NCBI GenBank assembly: GCA_031372065.1
Contig: JANMKN010000101.1
Coordinates: forward strand, 1-14,912
Origin: Abditibacteriaceae bacterium
GTDB lineage: Bacteria > Armatimonadota > Abditibacteriia > Abditibacteriales > Abditibacteriaceae
Direction: 5' to 3'
Length of the DNA stretch: 14,912 bases
Numbering within the stretch: the first letter of the stretch is position 1; each line of letters begins with the position of its first letter. Under the pieces are notes generated by a model. It searched no databases. It had not been told where the DNA came from and saw only the letters and a program-made list of their open reading frames with translations. The translations under genes and the position numbers were made by a program. Positions 2 through 11,705 of the stretch are shown here, one piece after another.

Positions 2-532
2 GGCAAATTTTACACGGATAAAGTGTTTTTCACTTCGCTCAGGCTGCGCGATGCTGTCGAAGTTTTAAATGAAGGCTTGCCGGTGATTGATCCGAATGCG
101 CCGCCGCCTGTGGTGGAACACAAAATCGGCAAAAACGGCAAGGAAATCATCGTTCCCGTCGCTAAATTGCTGAATTTGGCTGATATTGCGGCTGATCCGA
201 ATCAAGAGGTTTATCGGATTTCGATGCGCGTTTGGCTGGCGCCGTTCGACATGGGCGTTTCGCAAGATGCCGACATCATTTTGCTGCCGTCGCCGGAGCC
301 GGGACTTTACGAATTGCAATTGCGTTTGTGGCGTCAGAGCGGCGAAATCGCGGCTTGGCAGCGTGTGAATCGCGGCTTTTTGGGCGATTTGCGCAAGCAA
401 TTGTTGCTGTGGCGCACGATTCCGCGCGAAGTGCAGCAAGAATACATTTTGCGCGGGCGCGCTCATCTGCGCGGCCAAAATGTGCCGTCCGAGGAGCCGG
501 GCGCGTTAGTGGGAAGCGGCGTAGGCAGCTAA
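2..532 (+). CDS. 5'-truncated CDS; C-terminus of a protein resembling the large FtsX-like permease / M28 peptidase-domain proteins encoded next to OPT-like transporters
   Basis: Frame +2 is open from base 2 (GKFYTDKVFFTSL...) to TAA at 530-532, so GTG 23 is probably not the true start. The motifs VWLAPFDMGVSQ and SGE..AW.RVNR.FL.DLRKQLLLWR match, from memory, the C-terminal tail of that family. The product call is recall, not a search result. Confidence 0.55.
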   Translation, partial: GKFYTDKVFFTSLRLRDAVEVLNEGLPVIDPNAPPPVVEHKIGKNGKEIIVPVAKLLNLADIAADPNQEVYRISMRVWLAPFDMGVSQDADIILLPSPEPGLYELQLRLWRQSGEIAAWQRVNRGFLGDLRKQLLLWRTIPREVQQEYILRGRAHLRGQNVPSEEPGALVGSGVGS

Positions 533-544
533 AAGCGGCAATTT

Positions 545-754
545 TTGCCGAAAAGTGAACTCAATCTGCGGCAAAATGAGCTCATATTCTCGCAAAATGA
601 ACTCATTTTGCGAGAATATGAACTCATTTTTCGGCAAAGTGGACTCATTTTTCGAAAATATGAGTCCATTTTTCGGCAGATTGAGTTCATTCTGCGGCAA
701 AATGAACTCATTTTTCGGCAGATTGAGTTCACTTTTCGGCAGAATAGATGCCTC
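545..754. repeat. 21-bp degenerate tandem array (~9.5 units) of self-complementary units; the whole array is an imperfect palindrome with perfect 24-bp terminal inverted repeats
   Basis: Units start at 545, 566, 587, 608, 629, 650, 671, 692, 713 and 734 (partial); consensus approximately TTTCGGCAAAATGAACTCATT. TGCCGAAAAGTGAACTCAATCTGC at 546-569 is the exact reverse complement of 718-741. Confidence 0.95.
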
Positions 755-800
755 TGATCTTTTGGGAGATTTGAAGAAAACGTAGGAAACAAGGACAAGC

Positions 801-2861
801 ATGGCTAACAACTCGCCATTTGAAGTCAATTCGGACACCAAAGTCGAAGAAAAACCGGCTGGGCCACTCAATGTTGACCCGTCGCTCGGCGGCTCGCCTG
901 CGGATGATGTCACCGACGGCGACAACGAAGAATATATTGATGGTTTCAGTTGGAAAACGGTAATCGGCGCGCTGTTTATCGGCCTCATTATGATGCCGGG
1001 CGCGATTTACCTCAGCCTGATTGCCGGTCAGGGCATGGGGCCGGCGGCGGAATGGGTGACGATTATCCTATTCATGGAAGTCGCGCGCCGCTCTTATCAA
1101 ACCATGAAGCAGCAGGAAATTTACCTGCTTTATTACATCGGTGCGGGCCTGACTTCACAGGTGGGCGCTTTGGCCTTGACCGGCGGTGCCTTTGCCACGC
1201 TGATTATGACGCAATATGTTGTCAACTCGCCTGTGGCGCAGGCGCTTGGCATCACGCACGAAATTCCGCGCTGGGTGGCGCCCTCGCCCGATTCAGAAGC
1301 CCTTTCTTTGCGCACTTTCATGCACAAAGACTGGATTTTGCCGATTGGCCTTTTGATGTTCGGCCAGGTTTTTGGGCGTATGCAAGCGTGGGGCTTGGGT
1401 TATGTGATGTTTCGCATCACGTCCGACATCGAACGCTTGCCGTTTCCCCTCGCGCCGATTGCCGCAGCGGGCGCCACGGCTTTAGCCGAAAGTTCGGCGC
1501 AAAAAGAAGGCTGGCGCTGGCGTCTTTTCTCAATTGGCGCCATGATTGGCGTCGGTTGGGGCGCGGTTTACATTTTGTTGCCTGCCGTAACCGGTCTGAT
1601 TTTCTCGCAGCCGATTGTTATCGTCACCAATCCATTTATTGACCTGACGCAGAACACGCAAAAGATTCTACCGGCGGCGCAAACCGGCCTTGGCACCGAC
1701 ATCGGGCAAATCATGGTCGGCTTCGTGTTGCCTTTTCAAATCGTCGTGGGCACATTTTTCGCGGCACTTGCCTCCAAGGTCATCGCGCCGCCGATTCTTT
1801 ATAACAATCACATTTTGCACACTTGGACGCCGGGCATTGACCTCATTCAAACCGGCATCGTGAACGATGTGGACTTTTGGATTTCCTTCCATATCGGCAC
1901 AGCGCTCGTCGTGGCGATTGTCGGCATTGGCAGTGTAATTCGCGCCTTAGCCAAAGTCCGCGCAGACAAAGCATCGGGCACGGCTTCGGCGGCCCGCACC
2001 TCGCCGCCGCCGGGACGCGGCGATATTCCCATTTGGATTTCTCTGTCAATTTGGGCCATTGGCACAGCAGCGTTTATTTGGATGTGCCACCAGTTAGTCC
2101 CTTCTTTCCCGGTGGGAATTTTGATCTTCTTCGGCTTTGTCTGGACGCCGATTTTCTCCTACATCAACGCCCGTATGTCGGGCATGGCGGGCACCAGCGT
2201 TTCGATTCCTTATGTCCGCGAAGCCTCCTTTATGATGGCGGGCGAGCGCAGCGTTGCCATTTGGTTCGCGCCGATTCCGCTGGGTGATTTCGGCGGCATG
2301 GCGCAGCATTTCCGCACCGTTGAACTAACAAAAACCAAGTTCATCTCGATTGTCAAAGTGGAACTTTTAATGTTGCCGATTATGCTGATTTGCTCGTTTG
2401 TGTTTTGGAGTTTCATTTGGAAACTGGCACCGATTCCCTCGGCGGTTTATCCTTACGCGTCCAAATTCTGGCCCGCACACGCCCAAGTGGATGCTTTGTG
2501 GAAAACGGCCAACCGCGACCCAGAAACGAATTTCCTTTTGCAATCCATCAAACCTGCTTACATTGAAGCTGGCGCGGGCATCGCCGCGTTGACTTATGCG
2601 ATTGTTTCATTTTCGGGTGCGTCAATTTTATTTTTCTATGGATTGATTAACGGCACACACGCGCAGCCTTCGTTTGCGATACCGATGTTCATCGGCGCCT
2701 TGCTCGGCAAGTATTATTTCTCGCGGCGCTACGGCGTCGAAAACTGGCGTGCTTTTGCACCGGTTTTAGTGGCGGGCTATTATTGCGGTATGGGCCTCAT
2801 CGGCATGGCGGCGGTGGCATTGGCGCTACTTTCCAAAAGCGTGTCACGCTTGCCGTTTTAG
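801..2861 (+). CDS. OPT/YSL-like oligopeptide transporter family polytopic membrane protein (686 aa)
   Basis: Long ORF with many hydrophobic segments, and a purine-rich RBS-like stretch (AGGAAACAAGGAC) before ATG 801. Motifs AAEWVTIILF.EVARR, DIERLPFPLAP and the C-terminal W..FAPVLVAGYYCGMGL are recalled from OPT-like 'peptide transporter' proteins. Confidence 0.75.
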   Translation: MANNSPFEVNSDTKVEEKPAGPLNVDPSLGGSPADDVTDGDNEEYIDGFSWKTVIGALFIGLIMMPGAIYLSLIAGQGMGPAAEWVTIILFMEVARRSYQTMKQQEIYLLYYIGAGLTSQVGALALTGGAFATLIMTQYVVNSPVAQALGITHEIPRWVAPSPDSEALSLRTFMHKDWILPIGLLMFGQVFGRMQAWGLGYVMFRITSDIERLPFPLAPIAAAGATALAESSAQKEGWRWRLFSIGAMIGVGWGAVYILLPAVTGLIFSQPIVIVTNPFIDLTQNTQKILPAAQTGLGTDIGQIMVGFVLPFQIVVGTFFAALASKVIAPPILYNNHILHTWTPGIDLIQTGIVNDVDFWISFHIGTALVVAIVGIGSVIRALAKVRADKASGTASAARTSPPPGRGDIPIWISLSIWAIGTAAFIWMCHQLVPSFPVGILIFFGFVWTPIFSYINARMSGMAGTSVSIPYVREASFMMAGERSVAIWFAPIPLGDFGGMAQHFRTVELTKTKFISIVKVELLMLPIMLICSFVFWSFIWKLAPIPSAVYPYASKFWPAHAQVDALWKTANRDPETNFLLQSIKPAYIEAGAGIAALTYAIVSFSGASILFFYGLINGTHAQPSFAIPMFIGALLGKYYFSRRYGVENWRAFAPVLVAGYYCGMGLIGMAAVALALLSKSVSRLPF

Positions 2862-3001: not shown

Positions 3002-4084
3002 ATGAGCAGGCGAGTTTTATGCGCCATGAGCGGCGGGGTAGATTCCAGCGTCGCGGCGGCCCTTTTAGTGGAACAAGGTTACGAAGTCATCGGCGTCACC
3101 ATGAAATTATGGAAAGGCGAAGATGATCCTTTTGCAGCGCATCGCTTTGGCGGTTGCTGCACCCTTGGCTCATCCGAAGATGCGCGCCGCGTCAGCGACC
3201 AATTGAACCTGCCTTACTACGTTTTGAACTTGCAGGAAGAATTTCATCAAGCCGTGGTAGACGATTTTGTCGCCGAATACGCGCGGGGCCGCACGCCCAA
3301 TCCGTGCGCGCGATGCAACGAATTTATCAAGTTCAAATCGTTTTTAGAGCGCGCCGATGAACTCGACTGCGACTTCATCGCGACAGGTCACTACGCGCAG
3401 ATTGAACACATTAGCGACGCGCGCGGCGAACGCTACGCCTTGCGGCGCGGCACCGACCACAAAAAAGACCAAAGCTATGTTTTGGGAATGTTGACGCAGC
3501 GCGAACTTTCGCGCACGCTTTTACCGATTGGTCACATGGAAAAAAGCGAAACGCGCCAGCGCGCCGCCGAACTTGGTTTTTGCGTGGCGGCCAAGCCGGA
3601 CAGTCAGGAAATTTGCTTCGTCGAAGACGGCGATTACGCGCGTTTTGTCATCGAACGCGCGCCACAAATGGCCGAAATCGGCCCGATTTACGACGAAAGC
3701 GGCCAAAAACTCGGCGAACACGCCGGTTTAGCACGCTATACAGTTGGACAGCGCAAAGGTTTGGGTCTCAGCGCGCCCATGCCGCTTTTCGTGACGAAAA
3801 TTGACGCGGGGCAAAACGCGCTCGTCGTTGGCCCGCGCGAAGAATTAGATCAAAATGGCCTGAGCGCCGAAAAAGCGCGCTGGACATTTGATGTGCCCCC
3901 CATTGGCATGGAAATTTGGGCGCAAACGCGTTCACACGCGCGTCCGTGGCCCGCAACGCTGGAAAATGCGGGCGAAACTGAATTTTCGGTGCGTTTCCAC
4001 GAAGCACAAGCCGGTGTCACGCCCGGCCAAATGTGCGTGCTTTACGACGGCGACGAAGTTTTAGGAGCAGGAACAATTCAGTAG
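3002..4084 (+). CDS. mnmA: tRNA 2-thiouridine(34) synthase MnmA
   Basis: PP-loop AMSGGVDSSVAA, GRTPNPCARCN, IATGHYA, KDQSY, KPDSQEICF, YTVGQRKGLG, TPGQ..VLY. Confidence 0.97.
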   Translation: MSRRVLCAMSGGVDSSVAAALLVEQGYEVIGVTMKLWKGEDDPFAAHRFGGCCTLGSSEDARRVSDQLNLPYYVLNLQEEFHQAVVDDFVAEYARGRTPNPCARCNEFIKFKSFLERADELDCDFIATGHYAQIEHISDARGERYALRRGTDHKKDQSYVLGMLTQRELSRTLLPIGHMEKSETRQRAAELGFCVAAKPDSQEICFVEDGDYARFVIERAPQMAEIGPIYDESGQKLGEHAGLARYTVGQRKGLGLSAPMPLFVTKIDAGQNALVVGPREELDQNGLSAEKARWTFDVPPIGMEIWAQTRSHARPWPATLENAGETEFSVRFHEAQAGVTPGQMCVLYDGDEVLGAGTIQ

Positions 4085-4152
4085 TCGGTGGTCAGTGAGT
4101 GGTGATCAGATTTTGGCCACTAACCACTGACCAACGACCACTGACCACTGGT
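4082..4152. repeat. STRR-like 7-bp tandem repeats arranged as an inverted pair (hairpin) between mnmA and hrcA
   Basis: Left arm TAGTCGG TGGTCAG TGAGTGG TGATCAG; right arm CACTAAC CACTGAC CAACGAC CACTGAC CACTGGT. TGGTCAGTG is the reverse complement of CACTGACCA. Confidence 0.85.
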
Positions 4153-6979: not shown

Positions 6980-7029
6980 CAGTAAAAAGCGCCCGGCCCG
7001 AAAATTTTCGGGCCGGGCGCTTTTTACTG
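6980..7029. terminator. Bidirectional intrinsic terminator between convergent dnaJ and tatD; perfect 50-bp palindrome
   Basis: CAGTAAAAAGCGCCCGGCCCGAAAA|TTTTCGGGCCGGGCGCTTTTTACTG: GC-rich stem flanked by A5 and T5. Confidence 0.9.
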
Positions 7030-7906: not shown

Positions 7907-7989
7907 TGCGCGAGAGAGGATTTGAACCTCCACGAGATTACTCTCACTAGATCCTGAATCTAGCGCGTCTGCCGTTCCGCCACTCACGC
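7907..7989 (-). tRNA. tRNA-Leu (anticodon CAG); CCA end not encoded
   Basis: The reverse complement folds as acceptor stem GCGTGAG/CTCGCGC + A, D-arm TGGCGGAACGGCAGACGCG, anticodon arm CTAGA-TTCAGGA-TCTAG, long variable arm GAGAGTAATCTC and T-loop TTCAAAT. Confidence 0.97.
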
Positions 7990-11379: not shown

Positions 11380-11705
11380 CTAACACGCACTTTTTGCCTG
11401 CCGACACCTAATTTTTGAAATCTGACACCTAATCCGAGAAGACTGACAGTCAATCTTTAAAGACTTACAACCAATCTGCAAACTCTGACACTCAATCTGA
11501 GAACTCTTGCAGTTAATTCAAGGCGGCTTGCAACCTATTCTAAATGCCTCGCAATCAATCCGAGAACGCTTAAAGTCAATCTGAGAACTCTTACAGTTAA
11601 TCATCGGGCACTGACAATCAATCCGCAGCGGCTAACAGCCAATCCGAGGCGGCTAACAGCCTGTTATTGGCCGCTGACGGTTAATCCGAGGGCGCTGACG
11701 GCTAA
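11380..11705. repeat. Degenerate 21-bp tandem array (~16 units) filling the gap between the convergent cyclase and hsdR genes
   Basis: Units start every 21 bp from 11380 to 11695 with no indels, e.g. CTGACACCTAATCCGAGAAGA, CTGACACTCAATCTGAGAACT, CTAACAGCCAATCCGAGGCGG. Conserved core is approximately CTNACANNYAATC. Confidence 0.93.

Follow-up and report, generated by a model that had tools for sequence, protein, structure and literature searches.

A geneless palindromic array inserted in a conserved operon of an Abditibacteriaceae bacterium, and its likely link to a module of arrays and helical genes

Several kinds of intergenic repeat have been described in bacteria. Iteron arrays (with Rep) and centromere arrays (with ParR, TubR or SopB) are direct repeats upstream of one gene, and the STRR of cyanobacteria are heptamer intergenic repeats. 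Heptamer repeats with the unit TAACTGA lie between genes in Beggiatoaceae (PMC4679880). Bacterial MITEs include Correia, ERIC, Nezha and Chunjie (PMC3184786), and REPs and REPINs come with a RAYT transposase, in REPtrons and TIRtrons (PMC3116915, PMC3733652). Our comparisons with these published systems refer to excerpts of the cited papers.

The locus that we describe shares some features with each of these systems and differs from each. It lies in a stretch of 14,912 nucleotides from an Abditibacteriaceae bacterium, which we call the window. We conclude that it is a real lineage-specific insertion, that it is not a MITE, and that it is most likely a geneless progeny copy of an apparently undescribed module, in which a tandem array lies upstream of a gene for a small helical protein, with or without an FN3 domain. 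Several phyla have the module, for which no function has been described, and we found no description of it in the open-access full-text literature. What is new here is that geneless arrays are numerous, that their sites are empty in close relatives, and that genes and geneless arrays expanded together in one lineage. For these reasons we believe that the module should no longer be seen as an odd promoter but as a probable mobile system.

The palindromic array and its insertion site

The array lies between two chromosomal genes that are conserved neighbours. The features of the region, in window coordinates, are:

2..532, plus strand: conserved upstream gene (host), 3' end, with no Pfam or NCBIfam hit
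533..789, unstranded: lineage-specific inserted segment of about 250 bp, starting directly after the upstream stop codon, with ends good to about 10 bp either way
536..550, unstranded: small hairpin where the insert begins on the left; on the minus strand it resembles a terminator, by consensus match only
546..741, unstranded: array of nine near-palindromic 21-bp units with a TGA-AC/GT-TCA core, A/T tracts and a GC linker, in mixed orientation
546..569, plus strand: left arm of a perfect 24-bp inverted repeat found by self-alignment, equal to unit 1
582..621, unstranded: perfect 19-bp internal inverted repeat (582-600 / 603-621)
667..731, plus strand: exact 23-bp direct repeat in the sequence (667-689 = 709-731), 42 bp apart
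718..741, minus strand: right arm of the 24-bp inverted repeat, equal to unit 9 and the exact inverse of unit 1
742..789, unstranded: non-repetitive 48-bp tail of the insert, without a match to the flanks of other arrays
801..2861, plus strand: conserved host gene for a 686-aa membrane protein, OPT-transporter-like

A preliminary description of this DNA had reported the nested symmetry, and the alignment bore it out. The array aligns without gaps to its own reverse complement, with 154 of 196 positions equal about a centre at 643/644; the perfect 24-bp ends were reproduced and the internal 19-bp repeat was again perfect on recheck. TRF reported a period of 21 with 9.2 copies and a 71% match. 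The 20-bp dyad blocks form a mosaic of half-sites in both orientations, and the 23-bp direct repeat looks like a sign of slippage or unequal exchange. The array was also correctly described as AT-richer than its flanks (GC 39%, against 59% upstream and 55% downstream), and four of its six reading frames are open. The RNA of 533-800 is predicted to fold at -123 kcal/mol, with a z score of -13 against dinucleotide shuffles. Over the element Rfam returned nothing at gathering score, only sub-threshold matches of the miRNA hairpin type, and a promoter scan of 400-900 found none.

Contigs from three public runs, all of one study in which X1 may be the source sample, match the array letter for letter, and the worry that it might be an assembly artefact can be put aside. 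One contig of run X1 crosses 530-765 with 0 differences, and the junctions are bridged, again with 0 differences, by contigs of X3 (325-666) and X2 (595-994).

When we checked the orthologous site, where the preliminary description had suggested looking for an empty allele, it was empty in three genomes of the same genus (G001, G002 and G003) and in a closer strain (run X4). The stop-to-start gap is 268 nt here versus 32 nt in G001, about 26 nt in G002 and about 45 nt in G003, and in the X4 contig, which has 84 differences over 922 bp of the downstream gene, 12 letters separate position 524 from position 790. Because the gaps of the relatives are short and X4 joins these two positions, about 250 bp were gained after the stop codon. 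The inserted DNA had no match in five relatives. It exceeds the palindrome on both sides, by 13 bp on the left and by the 48-bp tail on the right, and the ribosome-binding region of the downstream gene lies just past the tail and is mostly unpaired in the predicted fold. Since the stop codon and the ribosome-binding site were spared, the insert was probably tolerated. No target duplication was seen at this site, where a duplication of 2-3 bp in an A-run would be below resolution (the empty allele is 9% diverged); the best match between the flanks is 6 bp (P 0.86).

The downstream 686-aa gene is present in 36 of 41 genomes, and PF03169 occurs in 15% of members among the Atlas neighbours of its protein. 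These neighbours also point to a host that is probably a member of the Armatimonadota. An ortholog of the upstream gene has what we take to be a permease-like segment. In other genera the orthologous gap is either empty or occupied by foldbacks that are unrelated, inverted heptamer arrays among them. Several of these genera (L003-L005, L020-L022) have palindromes centred on AGTACT in the gap, and others (L006, L010-L017, L024, L025) have inverted heptamer arrays of differing sequence. The element in the orthologous gap of G021 shares 18 10-mers with the flank of a TIGR02436 gene. Elsewhere in the window, there is a heptamer foldback between mnmA-like and hrcA-like genes (4078-4150), a perfect 25-bp hairpin after a dnaJ-like gene (6980-7029) and a tRNA on the minus strand (7907-7989).

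Arrays of the same period across the genome and their helical genes

The focal array belongs to a class that is spread over the genome. The assembly (G000, with contigs given as C-numbers) is 94% complete and has 6.14 Mb in 410 contigs. In the autocorrelation, lag 21 stood out with 310 regions and lag 42 with 294; lags 16-20 had 0-29 and lags 22-23 had 1-4. A uniform detector gave 381 regions, from which 20 of short period were dropped. The remaining 361 arrays comprise 59 beside orphan helical genes (52 upstream, 7 downstream), 215 that lie in ordinary gaps (solos, a small number of which are probably coding repeats, three of them on C172 and one on C379), 61 near contig ends and 26 in coding sequence. 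The roughly 335 non-coding arrays have a period of 21 or 41-42 and unrelated sequences. The density is 59 per Mb (361 in 6.14 Mb) versus 4-5 per Mb in the sampled relatives, that is, in part of the G002 genome (8 in 2.0 Mb) and part of G003 (1 in 0.2 Mb), and several of the relatives' arrays are apparently coding.

We considered whether the arrays code for peptides and rejected this. There was no mod-3 contrast in conservation (0.09-0.11 against 0.11-0.12 for the nulls), periods such as 41 bp break the frame, and the open frames have no strand preference (31 sense and 33 antisense of 49). One result goes against the non-coding reading: the arrays have 2.2 stop-free frames versus 1.7 in column-shuffled controls.

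There are 319 non-coding arrays of at least 84 bp; 205 are solos, and clustering placed 150 in multi-member clusters. At a threshold taken from column-shuffled arrays, 68 of the 205 solos cluster with a gene-linked array, and the largest cluster is made up of 13 solos together with 2 gene-linked copies. The other 137 solos have no gene-linked relative, which counts against the reading that they were copied from a module. By BLAST the exact focal sequence, including the 24-mer, is single-copy in the genome, with one weak cousin. This cousin, a solo on C218 with 65% identity over 165 bp, is the only relative that the focal array clusters with, and it sits just after the stop of a tRNA-synthetase-like gene. 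We found no gene-linked array of the focal type in the 94% complete, 410-contig assembly. In viral contigs the exact focal 23-mer had 0 matches and a loose three-core pattern had 9, mostly coding repeats with no clear counterpart.

A second solo in the window (11383-11705, about 15 units) lies right after the stop of a type I restriction hsdR gene and clusters with six other solos and with an array upstream of a helical gene on C107. At a contig end in the L280 genome (G042; C549:9-457) there are at least 21 units with the same TGAGTTCA core and 21-bp spacing.

An ordinary minisatellite, born on site by slippage from a chance palindromic seed, would fit the single copy of the exact sequence, and also a whole-array symmetry that is marginal against unit-permuted controls (P 0.035-0.077 for a self-match of at least 154). 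It does not account for the lack of a seed at the empty sites, the related solo elsewhere, the related units that precede genes of one family in distant genomes or the genome-wide spike at lags 21 and 42. The family structure disfavours this explanation and we think it very improbable.

The class is linked to a gene. The focal genome has 73 orphan helical(+FN3) genes and 52 of them have an array upstream, a proportion that is partly circular because the families were seeded from genes near arrays. Of the 21 helical genes without an upstream array, 7 have less than 400 nt of contig upstream. The genes have expanded together with the arrays: there are 73 here versus 1 in 2.2 Mb of relatives, where 26 would be expected. 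That lone gene, in the sampled G002 DNA, has its own upstream array, as does the single homologue among 40 relatives (G004). Using hhalign, we could link only families 20, 160, 337 and A1 as homologous, and the other eight were grouped by array linkage and helical look. Seven arrays are downstream of a helical gene instead (C43, C69, C239 and others; families 69 and 50), and most of these genes code for 150-165 aa with no FN3.

The linkage extends beyond this genome. The focal unit pattern, run against 185,579 species genomes, matched 3 times: two were focal-type arrays upstream of a gene for a 207-209-aa helical+FN3 protein, in a Blastocatellia MAG and an uncultured bacterium, and the third was a solo in Segetibacter. 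A metagenome scan with a single protein had no match, and a scan with the family alignment gave 80 loci, a few of them near-duplicates. Among the 68 loci with at least 400 nt upstream, 56 have an upstream array with a lag of 21, 41 or 42. Downstream of the gene, 6 of 63 have any array, all with a lag of 7-8, and 0 of 63 have one of the 21/41/42 type. The arrays end a median of 186 nt before the gene start and diverge much faster than the cognate protein, as the fraction of 8-mers shared between arrays is 0.43 above 85% protein identity and 0.01 below 55%. Units with at least 14 of 21 dyad-symmetric positions make up 46%, versus 9% in shuffles. What is conserved in the arrays is the period, not the sequence.

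The focal array fits the features of the module's arrays, with a period of 21 or 41-42, a length of about 200-260 bp and dyad-prone units. There is no helical/FN3 gene 140-290 nt downstream of it, and no such gene or remnant within 700 nt, so we take the focal element to be a solo derivative and not a full module.

AlphaFold2 on the family alignment predicted a short helix, a 54-residue helix, a second short helix and an FN3 domain (pLDDT 91). Structure searches with the model returned only FN3 domains, and a profile search of the protein representatives was dominated by multi-FN3 proteins. The linked genes had only fn3-type Pfam matches with no catalytic domain evident, and the NCBIfam profile search gave nothing beyond weak sub-threshold matches. 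The L063 protein was modelled as a homodimer with a score of 0.72 (best control 0.00; pLDDT at least 86). In calibration, 20 of 30 solved pairs attained the mark for a dimer, as did 1 of 23 single chains. At least 93% of contacts agree between runs, with the long helices antiparallel and in contact through the helical part, and the models support dimerisation of this protein. The helical proteins are near neutral or slightly acidic, so their charge does not suggest DNA binding. The genome also has 7 genes of the Y1/RAYT type; 6 of these lack an array within 600 bp, and the seventh is accompanied by one of a different type.

Dispersal of geneless arrays and how it may have come about

Syntenic flanks in the sampled DNA of relatives (2.0 Mb of G002 and 0.2 Mb of G003) were found for 41 solos. 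In the relatives, 32 of these 41 sites were empty and 1 had an array, and the rest were ambiguous or probable coding repeats. The gap was at least 100 bp longer here for 30 of the 41 solos versus 23 of 177 array-free controls (P 7e-14), and the controls had no size bias (23 larger, 21 smaller). Solos are a median of 54 nt from the 3' ends of genes, and convergent gaps are favoured over divergent ones (P 0.009). In these comparisons the solos behave as dispersed progeny at lineage-specific sites.

The main rival in our ranking is that the focal array is a remnant in place: a full cassette of array and gene was inserted and later lost its gene, and only cassettes move. Some loci look like this. 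A solo on C233 adjoins a gene fragment (56% over 73 aa), a solo on C19 matches about 400 bp upstream of a gene-linked copy, to near the start codon, and one whole cassette, on C137, is flanked by an 80-bp direct repeat. However, a tblastn trace of a helical gene within 700 nt was found for only 3 of 205 solos. Both flanks were found in relatives for 44 of 205 solos and 180 of 900 controls but for 0 of 40 gene-linked cassettes (P 2e-4, solos versus cassettes), from which we conclude that cassettes lie in non-shared DNA or at breakpoints whereas solos reach core operons. There are also up to 13 solos of a single array type, and the part of the focal insert that lies past the array is only 48 bp long. 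A remnant is therefore unlikely in our judgement, if less so than the other rivals.

Few solos (23 of 205) share a non-repeat flank with a cousin, and the focal site shares no end with the flanks of other arrays. Direct repeats of 25-80 bp flank 12 of 205 solos versus 8 of 502 control gaps and 0.2% of shuffled pairs. Examples with 26-80 bp are C137:14330-15960 (the cassette), C317:2750-3040, C286:4600-4940, C404:53710-53960 and C312:15280-15500. Some of these repeats duplicate the 3' end of the host gene, and at the C317 site the relative has one copy. At C230:6300-6870 an array of another type, with a direct repeat of about 20 bp on both sides, is nested in and splits an array with a focal-like core; the whole gap is 28 nt in G002. 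The insert around the solo at C135:45761-46400 has about 350 extra bp that resemble a captured piece of another gene, possibly kdpB.

The preliminary description read the focal array as a MITE or foldback element with 24-bp terminal repeats. Its view of a non-autonomous, inserted element survives, given the empty sites and the genome-wide class; the terminal repeats do not. A classical transposon of this kind, in which the ends are bound by a transposase, would agree with a size near 200 bp, the AT-richness, the stable stem-loop and the empty orthologous site, and a column model would rarely give ends as perfect as these (P 0.007 for a longest perfect inverted repeat of at least 24). Against it, the 24-mer is single-copy in the genome and has no match in viral contigs, the limits of the insertion lie outside the inverted repeat (533-789 versus 546-741), no target duplication is seen at the site, and the ends are merely units 1 and 9 of an array whose sisters uncommonly have terminal inverted repeats. 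A search for an autonomous IS with the focal terminal repeat turned up no further match to these ends in the genome, which is 94% complete. We regard the transposon reading as largely refuted.

The claim that the symmetry of the unit is insufficient to explain that of the array stood under the column model, and was reduced to a modest excess once real units were permuted. Under permutation, the first unit equals the reverse complement of the last with P 0.016-0.027, and 8% of unit-shuffled focal arrays fold equally well. The symmetry and the folding energy of the whole array are marginal by this measure. Perfect inverted repeats of at least 15 bp are present in 64 of 215 solos, 22 of 52 gene-linked arrays and 1 of 26 coding repeats, but terminal ones only in 9 of 215 solos and 1 of 52 gene-linked arrays. 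Since perfect inverted repeats are common in sister arrays but seldom terminal, the 24-bp ends are not a defining feature. Template switching can homogenise inverted arms, according to an excerpt of PMC8604942. We believe that the nested palindromes, and the focal palindrome itself, are probably an incidental by-product of template switching among dyad units together with slippage.

Two functional readings were also weighed. An RNA hairpin that tunes the downstream gene, as the preliminary description had offered, found no support: relatives lack the element, and of 60 sampled solos, half have a folding z score no better than -2. A broader version is that solos are domesticated sites, selected as operators, as nucleoid-organising sites for helical-FN3 dimers, or as mRNA-processing hairpins inside operons. 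The strict period of two helical turns, the dyad units, the dimer model and the very stable predicted hairpin between co-oriented genes are in its favour. The sites are lineage-specific with unrelated flanking genes, solos are depleted from the divergent, promoter-rich gaps, the folding of half of the sampled solos is poor, and the same gap is empty or has unrelated foldbacks in other genera. With these points against it, domestication seems improbable to us.

Of the earlier readings, the one that gained the most is that a dimeric protein would use the units as dyad sites at a spacing of two helical turns, because the period is kept as the sequence turns over and the cognate protein models as a homodimer. 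On balance, we lean towards the reading that the focal element is a geneless array, inserted after a stop codon in a conserved operon, that was copied from a mobile module of an array and a helical(+FN3) gene. In the mechanism we propose, the modelled helical+FN3 dimer would bind dyad units every two helical turns and would somehow promote the copying of array-bearing DNA in trans, by analogy with the logic of RAYT and REPINs. Strand transfer would be left to a host or other enzyme, since the protein shows no catalytic domain. As the units are nearly self-complementary, a strand could fold back, and template switching and slippage could then copy patches between units in either orientation. 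Such patch copying may have produced the exact 24-bp and 19-bp inverted matches and the 23-bp direct match. Copies of the array would survive best just downstream of stop codons. If the protein does drive the spread, this would be a route to intergenic repeat families without a recognised transposase.

A further-reaching version, which we put forward tentatively and think doubtful as a whole, is that this may be a new class of selfish element without its own transposase. Here a coiled-coil/FN3 dimer would read a two-turn (21-bp) DNA lattice and not a fixed sequence, and each gene would have its own fast-evolving array. Hundreds of geneless arrays would have been seeded into host operons, sometimes with target duplications of 25-80 bp. 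The focal array would be one progeny copy, and the genome would record a burst of at least 12 co-resident families.

Comparison with known systems

Iteron and centromere arrays are, like the arrays here, phased at two or four helical turns, and the phased repeats change along with the protein. Unlike them, the arrays here are chromosomal, have no linked Rep, ParA/ParM or replicon gene, occur in dozens of copies per genome and go with a protein that has no recognised DNA-binding fold.

Heptamer repeats, including those in the excerpt of PMC4679880, are also tandem units that form intergenic foldbacks. In the genomes compared here they occur with and without a small non-catalytic helical gene, and in other genera they occupy the same gap as the focal array. 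The period is 7 and not 21, the protein is a different one, and heptamer arrays are inverted on both sides of the gene whereas here there is one upstream array. In the genomes of relatives (L271-L278) there are TIGR02436 four-helix-bundle genes flanked by inverted heptamer arrays. Heptamer foldbacks with four-helix-bundle genes are likely a parallel system.

With MITEs, as portrayed in the excerpt of PMC3184786, the focal element shares a size of about 200 bp, AT-richness, a stable predicted stem-loop and orthologous sites that are empty or filled. It differs from them in that its insertion ends lack IS-derived terminal repeats, in its internal tandem structure, and in having no near-identical multi-copy family but one copy and one 65% cousin.

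REPs and REPINs, within what the excerpts of PMC3116915 and PMC3733652 cover, differ in several respects. Their cognate gene is RAYT, while here it codes for a helical(+FN3) protein with no HUH/Y1 match. In place of a REP doublet at a fixed distance there are nine tandem units in mixed orientation, and the period is 21 or 41-42 bp. In place of high copy number there are two clustered loci of the focal type and about 150 clusters with few copies each. No GTAG/CGTC tag was seen in the focal unit, and the array is on one side of the gene only. The likeness is in the arrangement: in both systems, extragenic palindromic repeats that can form hairpins lie beside a cognate gene and also occur as many geneless copies, mostly between co-oriented or convergent genes, with several families per genome.
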